Below are positions 25,694-42,120 of a DNA stretch of 64,000 nucleotides, piece after piece. How positions within the stretch are numbered: position 1 is the first letter of the stretch; every line of letters starts with the position of its first letter. The translations under genes were made by a program, and so were the position numbers. The stretch is from assembly GCA_964521235.1 (NCBI GenBank), contig CAZFRH010000002.1, forward strand, positions 10,025-74,024. Direction: 5' to 3'. The stretch is from an uncultured Gammaproteobacteria bacterium. GTDB taxonomy: Bacteria > Patescibacteriota > Patescibacteriia > 2-12-FULL-60-25. Under the pieces are notes generated by a model that made no database searches, was not told the DNA's origin, and was given only the letters and a program-made list of their open reading frames with translations.

Positions 25694-28069
25694 TTACATG
25701 ATCCTGACTTCTGGGAGCGGGACGATGAATTTTGTGCCTTGGGCGATGAGAGCTTCTTCGCGTTGCCGGAAACCGTTGACGAAGCTGTAGGGGAGGGCGA
25801 GCAGGTAATCTGGTTTGGCGGCGCGCATTTCTTCCTCCGTTTTGATCGGGATGTCTGAACCGATCATGTATTTGCCGGGTTTGAAGGGGTTGCTGTCAGC
25901 GGCGGCGACAATGTCCATGTTGCCCAGGCCACAGTATTGGAGGATGGTGTTGCCTTTGGTCGAGGCGCCGTAGATCCAGACGCTTTTGCCTTCTGCTTTG
26001 ATGCGCTGCAAGAAGATGCGCAGGTCATCGCGTGATTTGGCGACCCGGGCCATGAAGGCGTGGTAGGTCGCGGGGTCAAACAGCCCTTCTTGTAGTTCGC
26101 GGGCGAGGAGCGCACGGCAACGTTCGGTCTGCGGGTGGAGGGTGCTCCCTTTCTTTTTTGCAAAGACGCGGAAGCTGCCGCCGTAGACGTCGTTTTCTGC
26201 GACGTCGAACATTTCGAGGCCAGCCCGCTCGAGCAGCCAGCGCATGTGTTGCGCGGCGTAGTAGCCGGCGTGTTCGTGCACGATGTTGTCGTACATGTTG
26301 GTCCGGATCATGGCTGGGAGGTAGGCCATCTGGATCACCCAGACACCGTCGTCATCTAAACACGCGGCGGCGTCACGGACGAGCTTCAGCGGATCGTCCA
26401 GGTGGTAGAACATGGCGACGCTGAACATGAGCTTGGCCTTTTTTTGCGAGACCGCCTCAAACCGTTCGCGCGTAAAGAAGCCGCGGACGTGGGTGTAGGT
26501 CGGGTTGTCCGCCAGGAGCGACTTTACGTTTTGTGCCGGGTCGATGTTAATGAGACGGCTGCCGGTGTCGCGGAAAAAGGAGAGGAGTGTCGCGTCGTTG
26601 CCACCGATGTCCAAGATCACATCTTGCGAATCAAGCGACACGAGGTCGCGTCCGCTCTTGGCCACGTCTTCCAAAATCTTGCCCATGGAAGAGTTGGTGG
26701 AGCTGGTGTACGGATAGGCGTCGTACATGGCGGTCAGGTCAAAGCGGTGGCCGAGTTGGACTAGGCCACATGTCTCTTCACCGCGTTTGACGCACATCAC
26801 GAGGTCTAAGGGATAACGCGAGGCGTCTTTGCGGTAGGAGAGGTCGGTCGGGAAGACGGACGACAAATACTGCTCGCCGATATCAATACAGGGGACGAGT
26901 TCGGTATTGCCGCACAGGCGGCAGCGCGTGACTTTTTCTGGCTTGTCCGTCTTCTTCCACGTCTGCATGAAAGACACGACGTTGCGCGCGTCTGGAAAGG
27001 TTGGTTCTGGGTTCGTTACTTCTTGGTGGTCAACTTCACCTTCAAACGCGATGTGCAACCCGAGTTCGGCGGCGAGGTCTTTTAAGGCGATGGCGTTACG
27101 TCCGCCCACTTCATGGATCCCGGTCTTGTCCAAGTTCGCGGCGATCCAGCCGACGGACGCGTCCAGCGGCGCAAAACAGTAGCGGCTTTCGCCGGAGACG
27201 AAGACCGGCTTACCTTGTGCCATGTCAGCCAAGACGCCTTTTTGGAGGTTCTCGCTATACATGGGGCCGAGCCGCACGATGAGCGCATCCTTGCCGCACA
27301 GCTGTTCGGCCACCGCTTTGTGACGTCCGTAGACCGTGTCTGGCTGGCTGCGCGCGGAGATCGAGCTGACTTGGATGAACTTTTTGTATTTCCAGCCGTT
27401 CACCAAATCAGCCGTCTTGGTGACCGTTTCGGCAAAATCCCAGGTCGGTTCTTTTTTGGCGCGGAAGCGGGCTGACGGCATGGCACAGTTGATGACGATG
27501 TCATACTCTCGTCCGCTTAACTCGCTAGCCGTGTCTCGCGTGACTGGCACGACCTCGAGGTCGCCGCGCGCGATGAGCGCTTTGCACAGCGCGCTCCCGA
27601 CATAGCCGTTGGCTCCTACGACCGCGACGCTGCGCTTTGGTTGTTCCGGCACCTTTTCGCCCTGGAGAAAATCCACCCGTACGATCGGCGGATGGCAATC
27701 GTCCCAACGTTTGGACAGGAGGGAGATGGCGGTCACGCGGGTGATCGCATAAAAGGTGTGGGATGTGCCTTTGGGCGTCCGCACGCAGGAGCCGCGGCTC
27801 ATGTGGATCTGCTGCTCTGGCTGGTCGGGGCTGTCGCGCCAGACCATGACACCGGACCCGTCTACCACCAAAAAGTACTCATTGAATTCTGGGTGGTAGT
27901 GGTGACCACGCGTCTTGCCGGGACGGAAGTAGAGCATGTTGAACTCCACCAGCGGATCCTGTGGAAGCCAGGTAAAAATGCCGCCCCGCCCGTCGCGGAC
28001 GGTCTCGAGGTTGCAGGAGGGGATCAGGACTTCGATGGGCATAAGTTCATCGAAGTATAGGGAGGTCAA
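25694..28069 (-). CDS. Tri-domain sugar-nucleotide enzyme: FdtA/WxcM-like cupin, NAD-dependent epimerase/dehydratase, and C-methyltransferase with Zn-ribbon
   Basis: The cupin has RGHHYHPEFNEYF. The SDR has VAVVGANGYVGSAL. The Zn-ribbon is CRLCGNTELVPCIDIGEQYLSSVF, followed by a SAM-MT core (VILDIGGNDA) and a C-terminal C-methyltransferase domain. The track start is TTG; an alternative ATG lies at 28042. Confidence 0.75.
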   Translation of the reverse strand: MTSLYFDELMPIEVLIPSCNLETVRDGRGGIFTWLPQDPLVEFNMLYFRPGKTRGHHYHPEFNEYFLVVDGSGVMVWRDSPDQPEQQIHMSRGSCVRTPKGTSHTFYAITRVTAISLLSKRWDDCHPPIVRVDFLQGEKVPEQPKRSVAVVGANGYVGSALCKALIARGDLEVVPVTRDTASELSGREYDIVINCAMPSARFRAKKEPTWDFAETVTKTADLVNGWKYKKFIQVSSISARSQPDTVYGRHKAVAEQLCGKDALIVRLGPMYSENLQKGVLADMAQGKPVFVSGESRYCFAPLDASVGWIAANLDKTGIHEVGGRNAIALKDLAAELGLHIAFEGEVDHQEVTNPEPTFPDARNVVSFMQTWKKTDKPEKVTRCRLCGNTELVPCIDIGEQYLSSVFPTDLSYRKDASRYPLDLVMCVKRGEETCGLVQLGHRFDLTAMYDAYPYTSSTNSSMGKILEDVAKSGRDLVSLDSQDVILDIGGNDATLLSFFRDTGSRLINIDPAQNVKSLLADNPTYTHVRGFFTRERFEAVSQKKAKLMFSVAMFYHLDDPLKLVRDAAACLDDDGVWVIQMAYLPAMIRTNMYDNIVHEHAGYYAAQHMRWLLERAGLEMFDVAENDVYGGSFRVFAKKKGSTLHPQTERCRALLARELQEGLFDPATYHAFMARVAKSRDDLRIFLQRIKAEGKSVWIYGASTKGNTILQYCGLGNMDIVAAADSNPFKPGKYMIGSDIPIKTEEEMRAAKPDYLLALPYSFVNGFRQREEALIAQGTKFIVPLPEVRIM

Positions 28070-30764: not shown

Positions 30765-30845
30765 GTCCAGAGCATAACAGCGGGAGGGAGAAAGGCAACA
30801 GGAGGTTCCCTTGTCTGATTTGGTGTAGGTCGTTATTGTTTGGGC

Positions 30846-31379
30846 ATGACAATGAGCAATCAATTTGCCGTGTTCGGTGGTGGGTGTTTTTGGTGTACGG
30901 AAGCGGTGTTTGAGCAGCTGAAGGGGGTCATCTCGGTCATGCCCGGGTATGCGGGCGGTACGTCGCCGAATCCGACATATGAATCCGTGTGTTCCGGGAC
31001 GACGGGGCATGCGGAAGTGTTGCGTGTGGAATTTGACCCGTCGGTCATTTCGTATGAAGACCTGTTGACCGTCTTTTTTGCCTCCCATGATCCGACGACG
31101 TTGAACCGCCAGGGGAATGATGTGGGGACGCAGTATCGTTCGATCATCCTGACGACGTCTGACGAGCAGCGGCAAGCGGCCGAAGCGTTCATCAAGAAGC
31201 TGGATGAAGACGGGCCGAAGGTCGTGACGGAAGTGAAGCCCCTCGAAACGTTCCACGAAGCAGAGGCGTATCACCACCACTATTTCCAAACGCATCCGGA
31301 ACAGGCGTACTGCCAGCTGATCATTAACCCAAAGCTCGAGAAAGTGAAAAAGAAGTTTGAACAATTATTTATCAAATGA
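30846..31379 (+). CDS. msrA: Peptide-methionine (S)-S-oxide reductase
   Basis: [13 protein letters not shown] and [12 protein letters not shown]. The track start at 30840 is TTG; the first ATG is at 30846. Confidence 0.93.
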
Positions 31380-31762
31380 CTATGGACATCAAAAAAGACG
31401 AGGAGCTGTCACCGGAGCTGTACCGCGTGGCGCGCGAGAAGGGGACGGAAGCGCCGTTTACCGGCACATATGTGGACAACCACGAAGCTGGGATGTACCG
31501 CTGCGCTGTCTGCGGGACGGAACTGTTTTCGTCAGATACGAAGTTTGATTCTGGGAGCGGTTGGCCGAGCTTTACGGAACCCGCCAACTTGGAACACGTC
31601 GTCTTGAAAGAAGACAACGACCTTGGGATGCGACGGACGGAAGTGACCTGTAAAACATGCGGTGCGCATTTGGGACACGTGTTTGATGATGGGCCGAGCG
31701 ACAAGGGAGGCAAGCGATACTGCATCAATTCCGTCTGCCTCGCGTTCGATAAGAAGGCCTAA
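31376..31762 (+). CDS. msrB: Peptide-methionine (R)-S-oxide reductase
   Basis: [24 protein letters not shown] and [25 protein letters not shown] overlap with msrA. Confidence 0.95.
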
Positions 31763-31765
31763 AAC

Positions 31766-33454
31766 GTGTTATCATACGGCGTGATGACGCCGTTCCTTGA
31801 GATCGGGTTGATCTTTGGCATCGCGACCTTGGTCGCGTGTGTCATGCAACGGTTGAAGCTGCCATTTATTTTGGGGCATATCGTGACGGGTATCGTCGTC
31901 GGCCCCATCGTGCTGAACCTTGTCCATTCCAAAGAGGCGATGGAAGTGTTTGCGCAGCTCGGCATCACCGCGCTTTTGTTCATCGTTGGGATCGGGCTCA
32001 ACCCAAAAGTCATCCGCGACATCGGCAAGGTTGCCGTGGTCACGGGGCTTGGGCAGATCATCTTCACGTCCGTGATCGGTTTTGGGTTGGCGCGCCTGCT
32101 CGGGTTCGCGACCGTGCCGGCGCTCTTTATCGCGACCGCCCTCACCTTTAGCAGCACGATCATCATCATGAAGCTGCTCGGTGACCGCGGGGATGAGGGC
32201 AAGCTGTACGGCCGCATCTCCATCGGCTTCTTGCTCGTGCAGGATTTGGTCGCGACCGTTCTTTTGATCGTGGCCGCCTCGTTGGCGAAGGGTGGGAGCT
32301 GGCAAGAGGCGCTTTCGGGCGTCGGTTTAATGAGCATCTTGCTTGGTGTTCTCGTGTACCTCGTGGCCCGTTTTCTCTTACCGCGTCTTGCACCGTATTT
32401 TGCTCAATCCCAGGAATTCCTGTTCCTCTTTACGATTGGTTGGGGCGTTGGGCTGTCAGCCTTGTTTGCGGCCGCTGGGTTGTCCGTCGAGATCGGCGCA
32501 TTGGCTGCGGGCATCGCGCTCGCGAGTTCGCCGTTCCGCCATGAGATCGGCGCCAAGATGAAGCTTTTGCGCGATTTCTTTTTGGTCATGTTCTTTATCC
32601 TGCTTGGTGCCCGGCTGACGTGGGGCGGGATCGCACAGGTCTGGATGCCGGCGACGGTCTTTTCCGCGTTTGTCCTGCTTGGGAACCCGTTGATCGTGTG
32701 GGTGCTGATGGGGCTCTTAGGCTACACGCGTAAGACCGCTTTTTTTGCGGGGCTGACCGTGGCGCAGATCAGCGAGTTCTCGCTGATCCTTGCGCTCCTC
32801 GGCGTGCAGGGCGGGTTTATCTCCCAAGAAGTCGTGACGTTGCTTACGGTTGTGGGGTTGGTCACGATCGCCGGATCGTCCCTCTTCCTCGTATACGGCG
32901 ACGGCCTGTATCGCCTGGTCGGTCCATGGATCGGGTGGCTTGAACGCGCGGAGACCATTCGTGAACGGCGTAAGAAAGAACAGTATGACGCGATCGTGTT
33001 CGGTTGCCACCGTGTCGGCGCTGATTTTTTGAAGAGCTTGACCAAGCGGGGACTCAAAACGCTGGTCGTTGACTTTGACCCCGGGGTAATCGACCGTCTG
33101 CAGAATGAAAACATGACGGCACGGTACGGCGACGCGCATGACGCGGACTTCATCGACGATTTGGATTTGAAGCGGACGTCGCTCATCGTGAGCACGGTTC
33201 CTGACCACGAGACCAACACTTTTTTGCTCGAGCGCGTCCGCCGCGTGAATGCAGACGCTGTCGTCATGCTCATCGCGTCATCTGCGGACGAAGCTCATGT
33301 TTTGTACGACAGCGGTGCGGACTACGTCATCATGCCGCACTACTTGGGCGGTAACTACGCTGCGATGCTCCTCGAACGGTTTGGGACAAACAAGAAACGG
33401 TTTGAAGTAGAGAAGGGGAAGCACCTCAAGCATTTGGAGGTGCGGGTGGGGTAG
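31766..33454 (+). CDS. Cation:proton antiporter (CPA2/Kef-type) with a C-terminal TrkA-N (RCK) domain
   Basis: 562 aa with about 12 TM segments and a Rossmann-like AIVFGCHRVGADF region. Start is GTG at 31766 or ATG at 31784. Confidence 0.85.
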   Translation: MLSYGVMTPFLEIGLIFGIATLVACVMQRLKLPFILGHIVTGIVVGPIVLNLVHSKEAMEVFAQLGITALLFIVGIGLNPKVIRDIGKVAVVTGLGQIIFTSVIGFGLARLLGFATVPALFIATALTFSSTIIIMKLLGDRGDEGKLYGRISIGFLLVQDLVATVLLIVAASLAKGGSWQEALSGVGLMSILLGVLVYLVARFLLPRLAPYFAQSQEFLFLFTIGWGVGLSALFAAAGLSVEIGALAAGIALASSPFRHEIGAKMKLLRDFFLVMFFILLGARLTWGGIAQVWMPATVFSAFVLLGNPLIVWVLMGLLGYTRKTAFFAGLTVAQISEFSLILALLGVQGGFISQEVVTLLTVVGLVTIAGSSLFLVYGDGLYRLVGPWIGWLERAETIRERRKKEQYDAIVFGCHRVGADFLKSLTKRGLKTLVVDFDPGVIDRLQNENMTARYGDAHDADFIDDLDLKRTSLIVSTVPDHETNTFLLERVRRVNADAVVMLIASSADEAHVLYDSGADYVIMPHYLGGNYAAMLLERFGTNKKRFEVEKGKHLKHLEVRVG

Positions 33455-33458
33455 GGGC

Positions 33459-33487
33459 TTGAAAGACATTATCGTTTGTGTTATAGA
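33459..33487 (+). promoter_or_regulatory. Sigma70-like promoter of the E2-E1-Ubl cassette
   Basis: TTGAAA-N17-TATAGA, then AAGGAG and ATG at 33511/33517. Confidence 0.55.
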
Positions 33488-33510
33488 CCAGGCGGCCCTT
33501 TGACAAGGAG

Positions 33511-34947
33511 ATGGCCATGATCGAGCTCGATCCGGTCCTGGAATTTTCTGCTGGAAAGCCGTTTGCTTTGCCCTGGCACCTGGTGCAGCCGCATGCCGAA
33601 CGGGTTGCTCAGCATCTCGGGTGCACCGTCCGGCCGCGTGAGGCCAAAGTGGAGGGGCTCGTCGTGGACGTGGTCGTTTTCCCTGGAAAGCTCAAGGGAC
33701 GGGAGACGAGTGAGCTCCTGTCCGACCTCGTCCCGGGACCGATGCCCCATCCATCCAACCGAGCCTTCTTTCGAGCAGAGCTCGGAAACAGGTTCTTGGT
33801 CTGTATTGCCGGTGAGCCTTGCAGCGAGATCTTTTTCCAGAAGGAGGCCACGGATGACGAGGAACGGAAGCGCCCTTCGCGTCAGCCGCATGTCCAGGCG
33901 GTGCTGAAGCTGGAGTTGGACCGCGTTGCGTGCCTGACGGGTCAGTTCCTCGTTCTCAACATGGCGTCAGAGTTACCGTGCCCGCCTTTGCCTGTTGAGC
34001 CGGGGAGGGTTGATATCCTCCTCGGTTCCATTCCACCTGGCGAGTACACCCATCGGTACGTGAGAAAGGCGTTTGGCCTGTGTCTCGAGCATGAGGGAAA
34101 GGAAGTCTGGGTACGTAATCCCACGAAGGGACGCGGGGTCGTCGTCAAAGACGACCAGGGTGAGGCGGTGGTGCAAATCATCGACCGCACCGTCTACTTC
34201 CTCTACCCCGTCACTTCCTACTACCACCAGGGTGTGACCGAGGCCCTGTTCCGTCACGGGCTCGTCCGGGCCATGAATGCCTTGCGTGACATGGAGCGCG
34301 GGAAGCTCTTGCCTCCCAAGCCAGAGTTCGGGCTTGCCCCTTTCGTCGCCATGGTACAGGAGGACACGGACGGTCGTGCCGCTCATTTTCGCAAGAGGAT
34401 CAAGGAGGTCGAGACGGAGATCGATTCCCTTCGTAGCCAGCTCGAGAGCCAGTACCGGCAGCTTCTCGAGTTCCGGGCGGCGGCCGCCCAAGAACAAAAC
34501 CAGACGCTCCATGCCGACGTCCTCAAACGTGTTCCGTCAGACTATCGCCGGCTGAAGCGCCTGCCGCTCGTCGGACGGGTGTACATGTGTGAGGGCGGGT
34601 TGCAGGTGGAGACGCGCGAGATCGTCGTTGCCCATGAGGGCGTGCGATATCCCACGGGACGCTTTATCGTCCGGTTTTCCCGGACGGGCGTGCTGTCCAT
34701 CTGGGCGATCGAGACCCGCCACCCGGATGGCGTCCCGCATCCGCACCTACGCAAGTACGGCTCTCCCTGTTTTGGGACGGCGTCCGAAGCCATTTCCCGC
34801 GCAGCTGGCGAGATCCGCTACGCTGATGCGATGGAGCTGATCCTACGTTGGCTGACCGAAGGGTATGCGCCCGAGGTCGCCTCGACGAAAATCGAGACCT
34901 GGCCACGGGAAGAAAACCCTGCGGCAGACAAGGAGGCTGCGGAATGA
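33511..34947 (+). CDS. 478-aa protein: unknown N-terminal region, coiled coil, and a C-terminal E2 (UBC)-like domain
   Basis: The C-terminus reads YPTGRFIVRF...HPDGVPHPHLRKYGSPCFG...ILRWL. HPH-x7-C is in the same register as the eukaryotic HPN-x7-C. A heptad-like region spans residues ~290-340. The start may be 33517. Confidence 0.65.
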   Translation: MAMIELDPVLEFSAGKPFALPWHLVQPHAERVAQHLGCTVRPREAKVEGLVVDVVVFPGKLKGRETSELLSDLVPGPMPHPSNRAFFRAELGNRFLVCIAGEPCSEIFFQKEATDDEERKRPSRQPHVQAVLKLELDRVACLTGQFLVLNMASELPCPPLPVEPGRVDILLGSIPPGEYTHRYVRKAFGLCLEHEGKEVWVRNPTKGRGVVVKDDQGEAVVQIIDRTVYFLYPVTSYYHQGVTEALFRHGLVRAMNALRDMERGKLLPPKPEFGLAPFVAMVQEDTDGRAAHFRKRIKEVETEIDSLRSQLESQYRQLLEFRAAAAQEQNQTLHADVLKRVPSDYRRLKRLPLVGRVYMCEGGLQVETREIVVAHEGVRYPTGRFIVRFSRTGVLSIWAIETRHPDGVPHPHLRKYGSPCFGTASEAISRAAGEIRYADAMELILRWLTEGYAPEVASTKIETWPREENPAADKEAAE

Positions 34948-35600
34948 ACGGATTGAACCGCTCACACCAGTCGGAGCTGTTTGACCCGGCGCACGCACGG
35001 CCGGTCACGGTGCTCGGCGTCGGGTCCGTCGGGAGCCACGTCGCCCTCCAGCTCGCCCTGCTCGGTGCAAGCAAGATCACGGTGTGGGACGGCGACGATG
35101 TCCGTTCCCACAACCTCCCCATGTCCATGGTCTTCGGCATCGGGGACCTAGGACGGCTCAAGGTGGAGGCCGTGGCCAAACGGATCAAAGCCCAGACGGA
35201 CATCGAGATCCGCACGGTGCCGCGTATGTATGCGGGTGAGCCGCTCAAGGGGTCGGTGGTCGCGTGCGTGGACACCATGAAGGCACGGCAACTGATTTGG
35301 GAGGTGGTCCGCAACAACCCAACGATCGACATTTTTGTCGATACCCGCATCCATGAGCGCTACATCGTCGTCTATAGTGTCCGACCGTGCCGTCCGGAGG
35401 ACATGATGGAGTACGAGGCGCACCTGTACCCGGACAGCACGACGCCTCAACGCACCTGTGGGGCGCACGGGATCGTGAATGTCACGACCGTCGCGGCCTC
35501 GCTTGCCACCCATGCCTTGACGCGGATGTGGTCCGGTGATATACAAGCCCCACGCCAGTCTCTCCTCCTCGGGGATGATCGGCTGCACGTGTACGAATGA
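34944..35600 (+). CDS. Minimal ThiF/MoeB-type E1-like adenylyltransferase, 218 aa
   Basis: AAGGAGG RBS and an ATGA overlap with the upstream stop. Motifs VLGVGSVGSHVA, WDGDDVRSHNL, GRLKVEAVAKRI, VDTMKARQLI and TCGAHGIVNVTTVAASLATHAL. Confidence 0.75.
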   Translation: MNGLNRSHQSELFDPAHARPVTVLGVGSVGSHVALQLALLGASKITVWDGDDVRSHNLPMSMVFGIGDLGRLKVEAVAKRIKAQTDIEIRTVPRMYAGEPLKGSVVACVDTMKARQLIWEVVRNNPTIDIFVDTRIHERYIVVYSVRPCRPEDMMEYEAHLYPDSTTPQRTCGAHGIVNVTTVAASLATHALTRMWSGDIQAPRQSLLLGDDRLHVYE

Positions 35601-35611
35601 AGGGAGGATTC

Positions 35612-35845
35612 ATGTCGAAGATGATCGAAGTCGTGGTCGAAGTGGTACCGACGAGCGGGAAGCCGACCATCCAGACGGTCGAGGTGCCGAAGGGGGCCAA
35701 AGTTTCGGACGTCCTCACGGCGGCCGGAGTCACGGCCAAGGATCGGAATTTGACCCTGAACGGCGGGGTCGTCGGAGTCGACGCGAAGATCCCCACACCG
35801 GCCAAGGCCAAGCTCTTCGTCCAGGAGCGCCCTGCCGGTTCCTGA
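35612..35845 (+). CDS. ThiS/MoaD-like beta-grasp (ubiquitin-like) protein, 77 aa
   Basis: AGGGAGGA RBS 4 nt before the ATG. VEVPKGAKVSDVLTAAGV..LTLNGGVVGVDAKI..KLFVQERPAGS resembles ThiS but ends AGS instead of GG. Confidence 0.6.
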   Translation: MSKMIEVVVEVVPTSGKPTIQTVEVPKGAKVSDVLTAAGVTAKDRNLTLNGGVVGVDAKIPTPAKAKLFVQERPAGS

Positions 35846-35880
35846 CACGGCCGCGCTGCTCCATCCGTTCGTTTCTTCTT

Positions 35881-35926
35881 CAGCCGCCGCCTTGCGTCCC
35901 TCGCAAGCGGCGGCTGTTGTGTTTTT
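35881..35926 (+). terminator. Intrinsic terminator of the cassette
   Basis: CAGCCGCCGCCTTGCG-TCCCT-CGCAAGCGGCGGCTG followed by TTGTGTTTTT. Confidence 0.85.
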
Positions 35927-37120: not shown

Positions 37121-39694
37121 TTATTGCGGGAGCGCGAGGCCGCTGTTGGCCATGGCGCGCATGGTGTCCCATTCGGTCGCATTGGCCGGGGTGTGGCCAA
37201 AGATGCGGTGGAAGACGCGGATCGCGGCCCGTTCGTTGGCAAGGCTGCGGACCATTGGGCGGATGCCGTAGGTCATGATGTTGATCGCGGCGTTGTCACG
37301 CGGTTGCGTGCGGTCGGCGTCGCGGCCGTAGATCGTCTTGAAGGTCGCGAGCATCTGGTTCTCGCGTTCCTGGTTCAAGCTCGGGAGCTTGCCGGAGGCG
37401 ATGCGCAGCGCGTCGCGCCATTCACATTCGGTGCGCGGCACGTGGCCGTAGACGGCGCGGTAGGAGTCCACCACACCGGCACGTTCACCGGCGCCCAAGC
37501 GGAGGCCGCCGGAGGTGCCGTAGGCCGTCCAGTTTTTGACCATGTTGCGGAATTCGACAGCGAGCTCGAGCGGAGTGACGCGCGGGACAAGTGTCTGGTC
37601 GAAGAACGTTTCGGTCGGCAGGTTGCGGGTGATGCCGAGTGCGGCCAGGATCTCCTCCAAGGTCCGGATGACAATGCGCGCATCGGGCTCGTCGGCGGAG
37701 CAGGAGCCTTCGGCCGTGTTCACGTCCTCAATACCCAAGACGCGTCCATCAGGGGAACCGCCGCCAAGGTTCAAGAGGGAAGGTTGGCCACCGGACGAAG
37801 CGGGCAGTCCACCGCCACCCCCACCTCCGGAGTTATTATTATTGTTGTTTGAACCACCGCCGGATGAACCGCCTCCTGTTGAAGGGGAGCCTGGGTCATC
37901 GTTGGTGATGATGCACTCCTTGACTTCGCCCGCGGCGATCGTGCCGGAGCAGTTTGAGCCGAGGGATTTGGTGTAGGCGCCAGAAGAGTCTTCGTCCACG
38001 GAGTACGCACCTGGATCAACCGTGATGACGACGCCGTCTTCGTTGCCTGGGAAGGCATCATCAGACGGGTTGGTTGCCGTCACGACCATCAAAAAGTCGT
38101 TGGCATCTGCCTGGCCACGGTTATCGTTCACGACGTGCTTTTTGACGATGAGCGTCCCTTGCGTTTCGCTGCCCTGGATCAGGGTGTTGGTGACGGTGCA
38201 GTAACGTGAGCCGAGCGTGCCGACCGCGACTGCCGTGAGCGTCACTTCCGGTTGTTCCATCACGCCCTCACAGTCTTCGCTGTAGGTCGTGGTGTAGCCT
38301 GGAGCCGCATCCTCGGTCACGTCGTAGCTACCCGCTTCGAGGATGACGTAGGTGCCGTAGCCGTCGTCACCTGGGAAGGTGGTGGTGGACGGGTTGTTGC
38401 CTTCGACATGCAACGTAAACGCGGACGCCGGGGTTTCGCTGCCCACGACGACCTTGCGCACGATGAGCGTACCGACTTCCGGTTCGCTCCCATTTTCCGT
38501 GTTCGTCACCGTGCAGAGGACGTCCTCACCCGGTTCCAACGAGAGCTCGTAGGAACCGCTCTGGGAGTTACCAAAGGCGGATTCCTCGTTGTTGTAGGAA
38601 CAGGAGATTTGGGTGGTGTAGCCCTCGATGGCTGGTTCAGAGATGACGTACGTGTCAGCGTCGAGCTCCATGGTCACGGAGTTTGGCGTGCCATCTTCTT
38701 CCGGAAGGATTTGCTGTTCTCCGTCCAAATACACGGCGTATGACGTGGATTCACCCTGCCACACTTTTTCAACGGTCAGGGTCGCCGGTTCTGGCGCTGG
38801 TTCGTTTTCATCGTTGGTGATCGTGCAGTTCACGACGTCGCCGGAGGAAACCGAGATGCCACCGTTGCTATAGATGTTTCCTTCTTGCTGGTTGCGCGTG
38901 CAGGCAATCGTCGTCGCAAAGTTCGCGATCTCATTTTCCGTCAGCGAGTAGGTGCCGGCTGGGCGGGTGAGCGTCCGGGTGAGCGGCGTTTCGTCGCTGT
39001 CCGGAAGCGCCACACCACCTTCAAACAAGACGGAAAAGCTTGGGGCTTCTGATCCTTCATTCAAGACCCAGACTTTTGTGAGGTTGATGGTGGCGTCGAC
39101 TGGAGGAGGTGGCGGAGGAGGTTCGTCGCCAAACATGACGGTCGTGCTCGCATTGGCGAGGAGTTCCGTGTCATCTTCTGGCCCGTCGGCGCATTTCTGC
39201 GTGACTCCGTTGTGGGGTGTTTTACAGAGATAGAGTTCTGCGTTGACGGTACATGTTCCACTCACGACGCACGCAGCACTTGCATCGTATGTGTGTTGGC
39301 CGATCCAGTCACCGCTATCAAAGCCGTTTAGGCTAAAATCGTACTCTGTTCCATACGGGATTCCATGAAACCACGCATCAACATTTGCCTCAATAAAGCC
39401 TAGAGGGGTATAGCTTGGTGGAATAAAGCTTTCATCAGTCGGTGACCCATCTCCCCAGTTCACGCGGACAAAGATTTGTTGTCCATCGCCGGGACCGCCA
39501 GCGGTTCCATCCAGAGTGACGTAAAAACCACCGCTACCGTTATCGGTGGGGGTGCTGGCTGTAACCGTCATATCATGTCCTTCCACGACCGAGGCGGCTT
39601 TTACGCTGGCGAGTGGGGACAGGCTTCCCAAGACCATGGTGGCCAAGGTTAGGCTCGCGACCCACTGTTTAGGCTGAAAACTCTTAGACTTCAT
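37121..39694 (-). CDS. Large secreted surface protein with four prealbumin/Cna-B-like modules, a Gly/Asn linker and a C-terminal triple-repeat domain
   Basis: Signal peptide MKSKSFQPKQWVASLTLATMVLGSLSPLASVKA. Modules start GTLIV[RK]K/ATLTVEK and end C[TI][IV]TN. The track start is TTG at 39700; the ATG is at 39694. Confidence 0.85.
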   Translation of the reverse strand: MKSKSFQPKQWVASLTLATMVLGSLSPLASVKAASVVEGHDMTVTASTPTDNGSGGFYVTLDGTAGGPGDGQQIFVRVNWGDGSPTDESFIPPSYTPLGFIEANVDAWFHGIPYGTEYDFSLNGFDSGDWIGQHTYDASAACVVSGTCTVNAELYLCKTPHNGVTQKCADGPEDDTELLANASTTVMFGDEPPPPPPPVDATINLTKVWVLNEGSEAPSFSVLFEGGVALPDSDETPLTRTLTRPAGTYSLTENEIANFATTIACTRNQQEGNIYSNGGISVSSGDVVNCTITNDENEPAPEPATLTVEKVWQGESTSYAVYLDGEQQILPEEDGTPNSVTMELDADTYVISEPAIEGYTTQISCSYNNEESAFGNSQSGSYELSLEPGEDVLCTVTNTENGSEPEVGTLIVRKVVVGSETPASAFTLHVEGNNPSTTTFPGDDGYGTYVILEAGSYDVTEDAAPGYTTTYSEDCEGVMEQPEVTLTAVAVGTLGSRYCTVTNTLIQGSETQGTLIVKKHVVNDNRGQADANDFLMVVTATNPSDDAFPGNEDGVVITVDPGAYSVDEDSSGAYTKSLGSNCSGTIAAGEVKECIITNDDPGSPSTGGGSSGGGSNNNNNNSGGGGGGGLPASSGGQPSLLNLGGGSPDGRVLGIEDVNTAEGSCSADEPDARIVIRTLEEILAALGITRNLPTETFFDQTLVPRVTPLELAVEFRNMVKNWTAYGTSGGLRLGAGERAGVVDSYRAVYGHVPRTECEWRDALRIASGKLPSLNQERENQMLATFKTIYGRDADRTQPRDNAAINIMTYGIRPMVRSLANERAAIRVFHRIFGHTPANATEWDTMRAMANSGLALPQ

Positions 39695-39763
39695 ATGCAA
39701 GGGTAGGTAGGGGTGTATTGAATAAAGTATTTATCCACATAGTGGAGAAAGGGCTAGGGTTTG

Positions 39764-40848: not shown

Positions 40849-42120
40849 TTAGAGAAAAAGCAGAACCGATGCTAACCCAATAACCGCTAGGCTATGCACC
40901 ACGACTGATGGATGCTGGACCTTGATTTTAACGAAGACGCTGATGAGCAGCGCGGCGCTCAAGAAGACGATGAAGTAGACGTAGGTGCGGCGGACGGTAT
41001 CTTGCAGGCCACTCACGTTGATCCATCTAAACAGTTTGAGCTTGCGTGTGCCGTTGTCATTAAAGAAGAACAGGTCACTTGGTTGTGAGGCTGGGGCGAC
41101 GATGGCGACGGGCTCTTGGGTGGTCTTGCCGTTGGTGCCTTGGACGGTCACGGTCAACGGTTCGCCGTTAGGGGACGAGGTGTTGGGGTTGATGGCCACG
41201 TGGCCGGTCCATTCGTTTGGTTGTGTCTTGGAGCGGGTGAGTGGGGTCGTGTCTGTGCCGAGTTGGGCCGAGACGACCTTGGCATTTTTGGCCGTAACGG
41301 TCACTTCTAGCCCGTCTTTGGACGGTTTCAATGCTGTCGTCGGTTGTGCGGTCGTGGGTTGTGTGGGGACGGTTACGGGTTCGGGTTCCTCGACCGGTTC
41401 GGTCACGCCGAGGACGTTGGGGGGGGAGGAGAGAGAAGCGTCAGGGGGGAGAGAAGCGTCAGAAGCGTCAGTAAGGAGTGTTGGGGTTGGGGGAGCGTCA
41501 ACGGCAGTTGGGATGGGCGTGCCGAAGAGTTGGACCACCATGATGGACGGGGCGCCTTCAAACTCACCGCTCGCAATGCCGATGCCGGTTTCGGTGTAGT
41601 GCGTGTTGACGATGTTTGCACGGTGCGATGCGCTCGCGAGCCAGCCGGCCTGCACGTCTTCGGCTTCAAGAAAGTGGACGGCCAGGTTTTCTCCGGCGTA
41701 GGAGTAGTCATATCCAGCCTCGCGGATCCAGTTCCACGGCCAGCGGCCGGTCGGGCTTTGGTGAGCAAAGTATTGGTTCTTTACCATGTCTTCTGCCTTG
41801 GCTTGCGCTGCCTGGATCAGACGGTCGTTCAGGAGGAGGGGGGCGAGGCCGGCGGTCGAGCGGGCGGCGTTGGTCAGGTCGGCGACGTTCCGGACGGTGA
41901 TCGCACTTGAGTAGAGGCTGCTCGAAGGGAGGGCGAGCGGGGCGACCAAGGCTACGACCTTAAGGGCGATCAAGAAGAAACTGTAGACCAAAAGCGCCCC
42001 GTGACGGAGGACGTACGGGTGGTGGTTATTTCCCGCATGCGGGATCAGATGGTTTTTGAGACGCTTCCCAACCCGCTTGGCATGGCGGGTCACATGTTCC
42101 CGTATCCTTCGGGGTGGCAT
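40849..42120 (-). CDS. CAP/SCP (YkwD-like) domain protein with N- and C-terminal TM anchors
   Basis: AQAKAEDMVKNQYFAHQSP...YAGENLAV...GWLASASHRANIVNTHYTETGIG. Confidence 0.8.
   Translation of the reverse strand: MPPRRIREHVTRHAKRVGKRLKNHLIPHAGNNHHPYVLRHGALLVYSFFLIALKVVALVAPLALPSSSLYSSAITVRNVADLTNAARSTAGLAPLLLNDRLIQAAQAKAEDMVKNQYFAHQSPTGRWPWNWIREAGYDYSYAGENLAVHFLEAEDVQAGWLASASHRANIVNTHYTETGIGIASGEFEGAPSIMVVQLFGTPIPTAVDAPPTPTLLTDASDASLPPDASLSSPPNVLGVTEPVEEPEPVTVPTQPTTAQPTTALKPSKDGLEVTVTAKNAKVVSAQLGTDTTPLTRSKTQPNEWTGHVAINPNTSSPNGEPLTVTVQGTNGKTTQEPVAIVAPASQPSDLFFFNDNGTRKLKLFRWINVSGLQDTVRRTYVYFIVFLSAALLISVFVKIKVQHPSVVVHSLAVIGLASVLLFL

Follow-up and report, generated by a model that had tools for sequence, protein, structure and literature searches.

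A conserved three-gene cassette of uncultured bacteria combines an E2-like protein, a ThiF-family E1 and a beta-grasp Ubl with no linked peptidase

The window analysed here (64,000 nucleotides of contig CAZFRH010000002.1, assembly GCA_964521235.1) contains three genes on one strand whose products look like an E2-like protein, an E1 and a ubiquitin-like protein (Ubl), which raises the question of whether they form a complete conjugation system although no peptidase accompanies them. Computation gave us three fold assignments, a set of conserved catalytic residues and an invariant gene order, and showed neither a peptidase nor a sulfur-pathway partner linked to the cassette. On these grounds it probably (roughly 0.6) constitutes a Ubl conjugation pathway that is complete in itself, passes the Ubl from E1 to E2 as a thioester and belongs to a family not named before. 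The parts of the locus are:

33459-33487, plus strand: promoter-like site, weak and putative (TTGAAA, 17-nt spacer, TATAGA; a TGT precedes)
33511-34947, plus strand: gene 1, an ORF of 478 aa, extended at the N-terminus and ending in an E2-like domain
34944-35600, plus strand: gene 2, a 218-aa minimal ThiF/MoeB-type E1 (adenylating enzyme)
35612-35845, plus strand: gene 3, a 77-aa ubiquitin-like beta-grasp protein
35881-35926, plus strand: intrinsic terminator, a 15-bp GC-rich stem-loop at 35881-35916, then UUGUGUUUUU

The ORFs bear out the coordinates and lengths that an earlier, sequence-only reading had given for the three genes, except that public gene calls start gene 1 at its second ATG (33517, giving 476 aa), a likelier start than 33511 because it is better spaced from the AAGGAG at 33505-33510. 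The translational coupling it described is present at both junctions: the ATG of gene 2 and the TGA of gene 1 share ATGA (34944-34947), with AAGGAGG upstream at 34930-34936, and 11 nt separate the gene 2 stop (35598-35600) from the gene 3 ATG, with AGGGAGG in between at 35601-35607. The set is closed, as had been claimed, by a strong terminator (folding energy -30.1 kcal/mol, z = -5.96, none of 200 shuffles equally stable). The proposed sigma70-like promoter is the least secure element: its hexamers are present and match 9 of 12 consensus positions, the -10 box lacking its last T, but a consensus promoter scan passed over the site, and nothing in the region exceeded shuffled sequence. Directly upstream of gene 1, on the same strand, lie msrA, msrB and kef, with gaps of 0-56 nt and no terminator before gene 1, so that read-through from these genes is as plausible as transcription from a promoter of its own. 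The flanks are those described beforehand, namely an antiporter (Na_H_Exchanger and TrkA_N) upstream and, on the minus strand downstream, a 144-aa membrane protein and a DNA_alkylation (AlkD-like) gene. A Pfam scan of genes between 25.7 and 45.7 kb agreed with the earlier reading in finding no JAB, CD-NTase, ParB, ThiG/H, MoaE or rhodanese.

About 40 loci of uncultured bacteria carry the same trio without change. No related locus that we inspected departs from the order gene 1, E1, Ubl: it holds in 12 of 12 GTDB loci and, to the extent that the contigs cover them, in each of the 23 loci from metagenomes. These loci belong to Patescibacteria and to MAGs labelled Gammaproteobacteria and Binatia, and their shared arrangement is far beyond chance. 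No fourth gene is common to all, and none other is shared across 33 distinct loci. Annotated neighbourhoods contain no JAB, DUF6527, CD-NTase, ParB, ThiG/H, MoaE or rhodanese gene, the absence of a peptidase being one in cis only. We also looked for a thiamine or molybdopterin context as evidence against a conjugation system; the homologous cassettes never stand beside such genes.

By its sequence gene 2 is unambiguously a ThiF-family E1, of the minimal ThiF/MoeB type that had been proposed (Pfam ThiF, 2.6e-17; ThiF structure 1zud, 1.2e-8; TIGR02356, 8e-17, which is under the cut-off of that model). Its GxGxxG, D49, D51, K73, D110, R115, DTR (133-135) and one cysteine are invariant among 16 of 16 E1s; C149 is not conserved. 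The invariant cysteine is:

35457-35459, plus strand: E1 Cys172 (TGT), in an invariant C-G-x-H-G motif

In the 1zud alignment Cys172 falls opposite ThiF Cys184, within a collinear but low-scoring second segment, and it is the predicted crossover-loop catalytic cysteine. The nearest relatives of gene 2 are the sulfur-carrier enzymes ThiF and MoeB rather than conjugation-type E1s, and it has no ubiquitin-fold domain for E2 recruitment.

Sequence profile and structure model agree with the earlier assignment of gene 3 as a beta-grasp Ubl. The profile matches SAMP2 (5lda, 1.4e-5), PF1061 (1.8e-5) and RnfH (5e-3), and in Foldseek the AF2 model (pLDDT 81) finds Caldiarchaeum ubiquitin (7e-5), SUMO2, ISG15, NEDD8, ubiquitin and MoaD, with 38 ubiquitin-family structures at E<=1e-3. 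Its C-terminus is likewise conserved:

35825-35845, plus strand: Ubl C-terminal tail E-R-P-A-G-S and stop (family signature RPxGS-COOH)

Of 25 protein clusters nearly all end in RPxGS, as do 18 of the 19 metagenome loci that are complete (the remaining one has EPITGS), with rare variants RPHSS, RAAGS and RPQGG elsewhere. Translation itself sets the final end of the Ubl, one residue beyond the conserved Gly. Since a single residue past the Gly of the Bil Ubl (Gly97-Ala98) blocks adenylation until DUB cleavage (PMC10557695), the terminal Ser might by analogy call for a peptidase that the cassette lacks.

The relatives of the E1 and the Ubl would also suit a sulfur-carrier system, a reading that we consider improbable, in which, after adenylation of the Ubl by the E1, a persulfide passes through the conserved Cys of gene 1 (or one in the E1) and a Ubl thiocarboxylate results. 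This would serve thio-cofactor synthesis or tRNA thiolation, as with ThiS/ThiF, MoaD/MoeB, TtuB/TtuC and Urm1/Uba4, the E2-like domain replacing a rhodanese. The best E1 matches (ThiF, MoeB, TcdA) and the best Ubl sequence matches (RnfH and the archaeal, ThiS/MoaD-like SAMP2) lie in this direction, and the dual-function Ubls Urm1, TtuB and SAMPs manage without a dedicated operon peptidase. Against it, no ThiG, ThiH, MoaE, TtuA/NcsA, rhodanese or cysteine desulfurase gene lies near any annotated locus, no sulfur-pathway gene recurs across the 33 loci, and the NCBIfam sulfur-pathway models all score far under their cut-offs (ThiF 61 bits against 275). The tail is also Gly-Ser where sulfur carriers have Gly-Gly, and the obligate partner is a protein of 450-500 aa with a canonical-looking E2 active site; we know of no UBC fold that acts as a sulfurtransferase.

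Gene 1 matched nothing in Pfam, NCBIfam, PADLOC, PHROG or PDB sequences. Its relatives, 1,383 representative clusters at E<=1e-3, are all metagenomic, and on sequence grounds it founds an unnamed family. The AF2 model (pLDDT 88.5) and family alignments divide it as follows:

33511-33870, plus strand: N1, residues 1-120, hypervariable alpha/beta region, candidate target-recognition module
33871-34305, plus strand: N2, residues 121-265, conserved alpha/beta domain with no assigned fold
34306-34560, plus strand: helical hairpin (coiled coil), residues 266-350 (helices 275-329 and 331-350 by DSSP on the model)
34561-34947, plus strand: UBC/E2-like core, residues 351-478 (by model topology and hhalign)
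34738-34770, plus strand: putative E2 active-site motif H410-P411-H412-x7-C420 (CAT CCG CAC at 34738-34746, TGT at 34768-34770)

Mean pairwise identity among 116 members is 15% in N1 versus 37% in the E2 core; in distant members N1 keeps its length (median 111 residues) with sequences that cannot be aligned. Conservation counts for N2 pick out PPG (175-177), G207-R208-G209, D214, Q222 and Y229, and no conserved Cys, His or Ser nucleophile; hhalign found no similarity of N2 to E2s or to the other gene 1 domains, and its comparison with PDB folds gave no significant match. The hairpin matches only coiled-coil proteins in sequence, and in the model its last helix (331-350) doubles as helix alpha-1 of the E2 fold, which continues with beta strands (354-402), the active-site loop and helices 422-433, 437-450 and 470-477.

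That gene 1 ends in an E2/UBC-like domain, a central claim of the earlier reading, is supported by converging lines of model and profile evidence, each sub-threshold alone. In the confident model the C-terminal 130 aa have UBC topology (helix, beta-sheet, loop, three helices). Aligned by hhalign to six canonical E2s (hand-entered sequences), the family gave P = 4.6e-5 with 40 sequences and 6e-6 with 116, at E2 probabilities of 68-85% (85% with P = 6e-6), over a region from alpha-1 through the catalytic Cys; the best of 40 column shuffles reached P = 0.057 and the reversed alignment 0.68. HMMER against the PDB returned just four chains at E<10, one of them UBE2L3 (E = 1.8) in the correct register. 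The best-ranked Foldseek matches show an enrichment of E2, RWD and Atg10 folds (UbcH7, UFC1, UBE2L6, Atg10 and the Knl1 RWD domain are included), though none of these matches is significant individually, and the best PDB fold match has E = 0.23. No single-sequence search or HMM library detects the domain, and Pfam UBC/Prok-E2 models matched none of 60 full-length or 40 domain-only family members. The active-site loop adds the register of its motif: H410, H412, C420 and G422 are invariant and P411 nearly so among the 116 members, 113 of which carry H-[PV]-H-x7-C-x-G. The HPH-x7-C spacing equals that of HPN-x7-C in UBE2D2, placing Cys420 eight residues past an HPH that stands in place of the canonical HPN, and Cys420, aligned with the E2 cysteine, is the predicted thioester residue.

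The same residues could instead form a metal site (H404, H410, H412 and C420), and we give little credence to the view that the domain is no thioester carrier at all, being either an inactive UBC/RWD-type adaptor or a metal-dependent enzyme with those ligands, perhaps even the 'missing' peptidase, whose task would be to trim the Ser or to undo conjugation. Attachment of the Ubl would in that case fall to the E1 by itself, SAMPylation and urmylation without an E2 being precedents. Such a view draws on the three His and one Cys that are (near-)invariant within 17 residues, on the resemblance of H-x-H to metal sites, on the blindness of HMM libraries to any E2 similarity, and on the cassette having otherwise no means to remove the Ser after the conserved Gly. 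Yet the motif keeps step with the canonical HPN-x3-G-x-[IV]-C position by position, and gene 1 matches no peptidase or hydrolase family in any library searched; to our knowledge no peptidase family is built on a UBC fold. The Cys moreover never varies, a feature of active E2s; it is missing from RWD and UEV domains (PMC1779556).

Taken as a conjugation system, the cassette fits none of the described bacterial Ub-like systems. Every characterised bacterial pathway encodes a peptidase (PMC11601596), which accords with the earlier suggestion of a distinct type. Bil (BilABCD, types I/II) resembles it in having separate Ubl, E2 and E1 genes, a Cys in both E1 and E2, no E3 with the E2 proposed to pick targets (PMC11601596), and a Ubl that may carry one residue after the reactive Gly (Gly97-Ala98; PMC10557695). 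Bil, however, always includes the JAB peptidase BilC, and its E2 motif is CEHH, with His after the Cys, where gene 1 has HPH before it; the cassette also differs in its single-domain 218-aa E1 with a crossover-loop Cys, in the 330-aa N-terminal extension of its E2, and in the lack of PADLOC matches for gene 1 and the Ubl. Bub (6E/DUF6527), especially type II (Ubl, E2-E1 fusion, BubE), shares a compact Ubl/E1/E2 set and a minimal homodimeric ThiF-like E1, and type II usually has no JAB peptidase. Bub differs in using Ser/Tyr oxyesters with no catalytic Cys in E1 or E2 (both Cys are invariant in the cassette), in always encoding the serine protease BubE (the cassette has no DUF6527 protein), in an E2 without the C-terminal helix pair (three helices follow the Cys in the gene 1 model) and, in type II, in the fusion of E2 and E1, here separate. 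With type II CBASS Cap2/Cap3 (and Pycsar and 6A-MBL) the cassette would share a thioester E1-to-E2 relay, and the Rossmann half of its E1 partly matches PADLOC Cap2 'E1-E2' (2.5e-13) and NCBIfam 6A-MBL cap2_3; but in Cap2, a relative of Atg7, Atg3 and Atg10, the E2 and E1 are fused, it acts on the CD-NTase itself and not on a Ubl, and the Cap3 JAB peptidase is present, while the cassette has no fusion, CD-NTase or JAB peptidase.

Outside these systems, archaeal SAMP/UbaA and Thermus TtuB/TtuC likewise pair a small ThiS/MoaD-type beta-grasp modifier (SAMP2 being the best PDB sequence match) with a small non-canonical ThiF/MoeB-type E1 and need no operon peptidase, but they have no E2, which here is an obligatory E2-like partner, and their Gly-Gly Ubl doubles as a sulfur carrier where the cassette tail is Gly-Ser; on the UbaA model gene 2 scores 29 bits, against a cut-off of 450. 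The Caldiarchaeum subterraneum/Asgard ubiquitin operon and UBA5-UFC1-UFM1 keep E1, E2 and Ubl separate, with a canonical HP[N/H]...Cys loop and C-terminal helices in the E2; Caldiarchaeum ubiquitin is the best structural match of the gene 3 model, and UBA5 is a comparably minimal homodimeric E1. The archaeal operon, though, has a RING E3 and an Rpn11 DUB, neither found here, and makes ubiquitin as a precursor; similarity of gene 1 to eukaryotic E2s is visible at profile level only. Finally, ThiS-ThiF/MoaD-MoeB and MccB/PaaA, also an adenylating enzyme with a small partner, include the closest sequence relatives of the E1, but have no E2-like partner and sit in operons with ThiG/H, MoaE or RiPP genes absent from the cassette, and the carriers end in Gly-Gly (for MccB, a short peptide), unlike its Ubl.

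For the preferred reading, that of a thioester conjugation pathway, we infer every chemical step, the part that the N-terminus would play in place of an E3, and what kind of target is modified. The 218-aa E1, probably a homodimer like ThiF, MoeB and UBA5, would bind the 77-aa Ubl and with ATP adenylate the carboxylate of its extended RPxG-S tail; the Ubl would move onto Cys172 as a thioester, be handed to Cys420 of the UBC-like domain, and be discharged by gene 1 onto a target amine with no separate E3. The 330-residue N-terminal extension would stand in for the E3, its hypervariable first 120 residues probably selecting the target, while the conserved middle domain and helical hairpin may hold the E1 and/or dimerise the protein. 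Because the Ubl end is fixed and no peptidase is encoded in cis, either the E1 would accept the Ser directly or an unlinked host enzyme would trim it, and conjugation would either go unreversed or be reversed in trans.

As to what such a pathway is for, one candidate is an anti-phage or conflict system of Bil type, in which the gene 1 N-terminus recognises an invader protein and the E2 tags it with the Ubl, blocking its assembly or function. This is a sub-hypothesis about role, compatible with the mechanism above, and as a specific proposal we hold it rather unlikely. It is encouraged by precedent, all characterised bacterial E1/E2/Ubl pathways being defence-linked or suspected of it (PMC11601596; PMC10557695) and Bil E2s being proposed to pick targets directly without an E3 (PMC11601596), and also by the hypervariability of N1, the patchy distribution of a sharply bounded cassette across unrelated phyla, and structural matches of the gene 1 model to uncharacterised phage proteins (E = 4e-5 to 1e-3). 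Set against this, no PADLOC model fits gene 1 or the Ubl; the genes around the cassettes have ribosomal, metabolic or envelope functions, and no defence island, defence gene or CapW- or CapH/CapP-type regulator is among them; the flanks are vertically conserved within subclades; and phage, plasmid and IMG/VR collections contain no member of the gene 1 family. Given these housekeeping neighbours and that absence, the genomic context lends the biological role no support of its own. We nonetheless lean slightly toward a conflict or stress function over a housekeeping one, because the N-terminus of gene 1 is hypervariable and the taxonomic distribution of the cassette is patchy.

The three open reading frames of the cassette, namely the E2-like gene 1, the ThiF-type E1 gene 2 and the 77-aa ubiquitin-like (Ubl) gene 3, were recovered by ORF calls and by reading of the sequence at exactly the positions that the sequence-only reading had assigned them, within 2.4 kb and ahead of a terminator:

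33511-34947, + strand: gene 1, 478 aa (476 aa from the second ATG, at 33517)
34944-35600, + strand: gene 2, 218 aa, with its own AAGGAGG 7 nt upstream
35612-35845, + strand: gene 3, 77 aa, starting 11 nt past the gene 2 stop, behind AGGGAGG
35881-35916 and then UUGUGUUUUU, + strand: intrinsic terminator, a 15-bp GC-rich hairpin

Public gene calls on identical contigs begin gene 1 at the second ATG, and this is the likelier start because it lies 6 nt after AAGGAG. The proposed translational coupling of genes 1 and 2 is evident, the start of gene 2 lying inside the stop of gene 1 (ATGA), and the strong terminator is a convincing intrinsic one, hairpin plus UUGUGUUUUU folding at -30.1 kcal/mol (z = -5.96). 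The sigma70-like promoter fared less well: TTGAAA and TATAGA are present with a 17-nt spacing, but they match the consensus at only 9 of 12 positions and lack the conserved final T; a consensus scan did not report the site, and found no excess of such sites in the region. Directly before gene 1, and on its strand, come msrA, msrB and the gene of a Kef-type antiporter; no terminator intervenes, so transcription of the cassette may begin further upstream. These genes (30840-33454, + strand; msrA, 179 aa; msrB, 128 aa; Kef-type Na+/H+ exchanger-TrkA_N, 562 aa) run head to tail, their starts and stops overlapping or nearly abutting and no terminator following them, so that they and the three cassette genes may form one six-gene transcript. 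A link between MsrA and Ubl conjugation is known from Haloferax; msr genes are absent from the neighbourhood of every other cassette locus, so the adjacency is probably coincidence.

Gene 2 is, as first read, a minimal ThiF/MoeB-type adenylating enzyme, scoring 63 bits with Pfam ThiF (cut-off 28; E = 2.6e-17) and having E. coli ThiF as its nearest solved relative (1.2e-8). It falls below every curated equivalog cut-off for ThiF, MoeB, UbaA, PRTRC-ThiF and Cap2, with 61 bits for TIGR02356 (cut-off 275), 20-29 bits for the MoeB models (cut-offs 266-450) and 32 bits for the PRTRC ThiF model TIGR03736 (cut-off 144.75); the PADLOC Cap2 models cover only residues 4-118. Cassette E1s are 216-234 aa long, consist of a single adenylation domain and have no ubiquitin-fold domain. 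All 16 of those aligned keep GxGxxG (G25, G27, G30), D49, D51, S-H-N 55-57, K73, C108-V-D110, R115 and D-T-R 133-135, and likewise Cys172, within C-G-x-H-G; the other cysteine, C149, is not conserved. Cys172 is collinear with the crossover-loop Cys184 of ThiF, in a second alignment segment that is weak.

The beta-grasp nature of gene 3 became clear at the level of profile and structure. As a single sequence its matches to RnfH, SAMP2 and ThiS were all below threshold (Pfam, NCBIfam), while a profile of 15 cassette Ubls matched SAMP2 (5lda, 1.4e-5), PF1061 of P. furiosus (1.8e-5) and RnfH (5e-3). Its AlphaFold model (25 homologues, pLDDT 81) has the strand-strand-helix-strand-strand order of the beta-grasp, and gave 38 Foldseek matches at E ≤ 1e-3; among its matches are Caldiarchaeum ubiquitin (7e-5), SUMO2, ISG15, FAT10, NEDD8, ubiquitin and MoaD; the ThiS/MoaD-like assignment of the sequence-only reading thus stands. 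The C-terminus is the most distinctive part of the Ubl: nearly every family member finishes in ...[E/Q]-R-P-x-G-S directly before the stop codon, and so in Gly-Ser, one residue beyond the Gly; the rare variants end -RPHSS, -RAAGS, -RPQGG or -EPITGS. The last of these comes from a divergent cassette locus, L039 (6720-6941 of contig Ga0196963_10000012), where only the terminal Gly-Ser of the usual ...ERPxGS is strictly retained. That the terminal Ser is nearly invariant argues for its having a function and against a disposable cap.

Neither the gene 1 protein of the window nor any of 60 diverse relatives had a sequence match in Pfam, NCBIfam, PADLOC, PHROG or the PDB, apart from some coiled-coil noise. 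Word-indexed searches returned only 4-5 relatives and so made the family look extremely rare, a mistaken picture that an exhaustive profile search corrected: 1,383 representative clusters at E ≤ 1e-3, 167 of them at E ≤ 1e-30, for a family of about 1,400 when counted as clusters at 50% identity. Nearly all members are 430-550 aa and are matched over most of their length. Those that we looked up all came from metagenomes or metagenome-assembled genomes, and the only name attached to them was 'hypothetical protein', in bins labelled Patescibacteria or Parcubacteria. An AlphaFold model (116 sequences, pLDDT 88.5) divides the protein into four parts:

Residues 1-120 (N1): alpha/beta region
Residues 121-265 (N2): second alpha/beta domain
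Residues 275-350: long helical hairpin
C-terminal unit (C-domain): helix 331-350, strands 354-402, a loop, and helices 422-433, 437-450 and 470-477

Conservation varies widely along the protein: mean pairwise identity reaches 37% in the E2 core but is 23% in N2 (residues 121-265) and 15% in both N1 (residues 1-120) and the hairpin. The N-terminal domains resembled neither E2s, nor each other, nor any solved structure by hhalign and Foldseek, and contain no conserved Cys, His or Ser fit for a peptidase. Tandem UBC/RWD repeats were considered and rejected (hhalign of N1 and N2 against E2s, the C-domain and each other, P ≥ 0.07). Weak Foldseek matches of the N-terminus to glutamine amidotransferases and nucleoside phosphorylases were likewise set aside, because the catalytic residues are not conserved. 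The full model had no significant match in the PDB (best E = 0.23). Among the predicted viral structures of BFVD, Foldseek matched it to uncharacterised phage proteins of 420-1146 aa at low TM-scores of about 0.2 (A0A6J5NL39, 4e-5; A0A516KZW4, 1.9e-4; A0A8S5PR93; A0A516LW79), matches for which the long helical hairpin may be responsible.

In the modelled C-domain the elements follow the order of the UBC fold, namely N-terminal helix, strands, active-site loop and C-terminal helices. Invariant across the family are H410, H412, C420, G422 and Y452, and nearly so P411, H404, W447 and L448. The resulting motif, H-P-H-[IVL]-x3-G-x-[PVAI]-C-[FYL]-G (present as H-[PV]-H-x7-C-x-G in 113 of the 116 members), parallels the canonical E2 motif HPN-[IV]-x3-G-x-[IV]-C-[LI] residue for residue, with His in place of Asn and an identical distance between the third motif residue and the Cys. 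Only four chains were matched at E < 10 when the C-domain profile was run against all PDB sequences, and two of them are UBE2L3 (E = 1.8), aligned from helix alpha-1 to the catalytic Cys. Alignment by hhalign to six human E2s gave a probability of 68-71% (P = 4.6e-5) with 40 family sequences and 85% (P = 6e-6) with 116, the E2 sequences having been entered by hand, so that any errors in them could only weaken the signal; the best of 40 column shuffles reached P = 0.057 and the reversed alignment 0.68. Among the best 25 Foldseek matches, none individually significant, were two Knl1 RWD domains, two UbcH7 entries, UFC1, UBE2L6 and two Atg10 entries. The E2/UBC-like C-terminus first proposed for gene 1 is thus upheld by topology, profile alignment and motif, but not by the Pfam UQ_con and Prok-E2 models, which matched none of 60 full-length proteins and one of 40 isolated domains, at E = 0.18. 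On balance a UBC fold is well supported for the C-domain and probably correct, and a role as thioester carrier is a plausible prediction. The three His and one Cys of its conserved cluster might instead form a metal site or a peptidase centre, a reading that the residue-for-residue match to the E2 active site makes disfavoured.

Comparison of gene neighbourhoods showed the same one-strand order, gene 1 followed by the E1 and then by the Ubl, at every locus examined, wherever the contig was long enough, with stops and starts that usually overlap or nearly abut. This order held in the four closest relatives and further contigs with public gene calls, in 12 of 12 GTDB species-representative loci (G+C 45% to 68%; labelled Candidatus Uhrbacteria, uncultured Gammaproteobacteria, Candidatus Binatia and unclassified bacteria) and in all 23 JGI metagenome loci. 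Complete genomes also carry the cassette, one example being the 1.19-Mb chromosome OY970181.1. No other family is common to the neighbourhoods: clustering of ORFs within 4 kb of the cassette at 33 distinct loci found none shared beyond single subclades. As the sequence-only reading had it, a Pfam scan of the flanking genes in the window (25.7-45.7 kb) found no JAB, CD-NTase, ParB, ThiG/H, MoaE or rhodanese; these flanks encode sugar-modifying enzymes, glycosyltransferases, NUDIX, AlkD, and SpaA-like and CAP surface proteins. A six-frame scan of the window for the JAMM motif gave two matches, both in short ORFs judged spurious. Annotated neighbours elsewhere include ribosomal proteins S7 and S12, EF-G, ribonucleotide reductase, transporters and the CCA-adding enzyme, and in no annotated neighbourhood did we find a JAB/JAMM peptidase, a BubE (DUF6527) serine protease, genes for thiamine or molybdopterin, or any gene recognisable as belonging to defence. 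A phage or plasmid origin was also considered and rejected, tblastn giving no match in 50,697 phage records, 72,556 plasmid records or IMG/VR.

A sulfur-carrier role would be in keeping with the nearest relatives of the E1 and the Ubl. Three observations contradict it: no sulfur-pathway partner occurs in about 40 loci, the tail of the Ubl is Gly-Ser, and the E2-like partner is obligate.

Several loci have local features of their own. One or two Exo_endo_phos (EEP nuclease/phosphatase) genes lie directly upstream of gene 1 on the same strand in related loci L001 (5714-8241), L009 (1226-2440) and L021 (8646-9875), and the arrangement recurs in L004, L006, L020 and L030, all of one high-GC subclade in which AAA_28 and NT5C genes lie downstream on the opposite strand. 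We rejected EEP (7 loci) and AAA_28 (8 loci) as a fourth component, since both are confined to this subclade, whose wider flanks are also syntenic, and we ascribe their linkage to shared ancestry rather than to membership of the system. In L001 (GCA_041168945.1) and L021 (GCA_964491475.1) the order is AhpC, TPP enzyme, aldehyde dehydrogenase, EEP, cassette, AAA_28, NT5C, GTP cyclohydrolase II, acetyltransferase and MarC; one of the two is labelled Candidatus Parcubacteria and the other Gammaproteobacteria, and with so extended a common gene order at least one label or binning is probably wrong. A variant cassette at L024 (the same as L010; contig CAZKEE010000003.1, 3111-10328), whose Ubl ends ...QRPQGG rather than GS, has an 877-aa AAA+ ATPase (AAA plus AAA_lid_3) immediately upstream and two uncharacterised genes, of 500 aa and 142 aa, immediately downstream, all on the same strand; this single case could be an elaborated form of the cassette with an unfoldase. 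In the window, a secreted protein of 859 aa (37121-39700, - strand) combines repeated SpaA-type prealbumin-fold domains with a Gly/Ser/Asn low-complexity stretch; a CAP-domain protein (40849-42120) and a GDSL-lipase/beta-helix protein of 1079 aa are encoded nearby. Some of the gene types around the cassette in L023 and L025, two loci of Patescibacteria type, are similar (CAP, NUDIX, glycosyltransferase family 2), which hints that the window may come from a related organism. A 101-nt tRNA-Lys(ttt) called by ARAGORN (25947-26047, + strand) inside a 791-aa methyltransferase/epimerase ORF of the opposite strand is probably a false positive, because Rfam, which finds three tRNAs only, does not confirm it.

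All characterised bacterial ubiquitination-related pathways encode a peptidase, according to the Corbett-lab papers (PMC11601596), and operon types 6a-6e of the 2006 Iyer-Aravind classification are JAB-containing types only (PMC1779556). Unlike Bil (BilABCD), the cassette has no JAB/JAMM peptidase BilC, and its E1 is a single adenylation domain where that of Bil is multidomain (IAD-AAD-CYS). Unlike Bub (6E/DUF6527), it has no BubE, and whereas the Bub E1 and E2 have no catalytic Cys and form oxyesters through Tyr and Ser, it has the invariant Cys172 and Cys420. Type II CBASS differs in its CD-NTase, its Cap3 JAB and the fusion of E2 and E1 in Cap2, which are separate proteins here. Against PRTRC stand the lack of ParB nearby and a PRTRC ThiF score far below cut-off; against ThiS/ThiF and MoaD/MoeB, the lack of an equivalog-level E1 match and of ThiG, ThiH, MoaE or rhodanese in any locus. 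SAMP- and TtuB-type systems have no E2, whereas the cassette has an E2-like partner. In its working it would most resemble Bil, or else a eukaryote-type cascade reduced to its essentials. Since the cassette lacks defining features of every described system, the layout is distinct, as the sequence-only reading had suspected, and we therefore rate it, on computational evidence, as representing an E2 family and an operon architecture that are both new among the bacterial Ubl conjugation systems. A search of the literature available without subscription found no earlier description of the gene 1 family.

From evidence that is computational throughout we infer, as the simplest model using every conserved feature, a classical E1-to-E2 relay. 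The Ubl tail would be adenylated by the E1, form a thioester on its Cys172, pass to Cys420 of the E2 domain and be discharged, without an E3, onto a target picked by gene 1's own N-terminal region; target choice without an E3 has likewise been proposed for Bil E2s (PMC11601596). Because the E1 has no ubiquitin-fold domain, N2 and the helical hairpin are candidates for holding it, and they would perhaps also match its expected dimeric state. The Ubl of E. aridi Bil ends Gly97-Ala98, the extra Ala blocking adenylation until a DUB removes it (PMC10557695), and by analogy the near-invariant Ser after the Gly, with no linked peptidase, poses a real difficulty for the relay. The cassette E1 may accept a C-terminal Ser, an unlinked host enzyme may trim it, or the chemistry may depart from the canonical scheme. 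A role against phage would be compatible with the relay and would suit the hypervariable N-terminus of gene 1 and the patchy phyletic spread, although the housekeeping character of the neighbouring genes and the lack of matches in mobile elements do not favour it.

We put at somewhat under even odds (roughly 45%) the reading that the cassette is a fourth, undescribed and most minimal class of bacterial ubiquitination-like system: three genes, chemistry through true Cys thioesters, an E2 that in its active site and C-terminal helices stands nearer to the canonical eukaryotic type than do the described E2s of Cap2 and Bub, an E3-like targeting region of its own, no dedicated peptidase, and a Ubl activated through or despite its Gly-Ser end. 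Protein conjugation by bacterial E1/E2/Ubl pathways (CBASS Cap2, Bil, Bub) has been shown only recently, and these pathways are used in reconstructing the origin of eukaryotic ubiquitination. A conserved family without a peptidase would show the irreducible core of a Ubl conjugation system and would pose the question of whether the E1 activates a C-terminal Ser or a host enzyme is recruited for its removal; at 2.4 kb the cassette is small enough for direct reconstitution in E. coli. It would also add a new and sizeable E2 family, of about 1,400 clusters, missed entirely by current domain libraries. The cassette occurs mainly in uncultured bacteria, Patescibacteria (CPR) included, for which we found no description of a protein-tagging system in the literature searched; its occurrence in reduced genomes labelled Patescibacteria would point to protein tagging in organisms about whose regulation and defence hardly anything is known.
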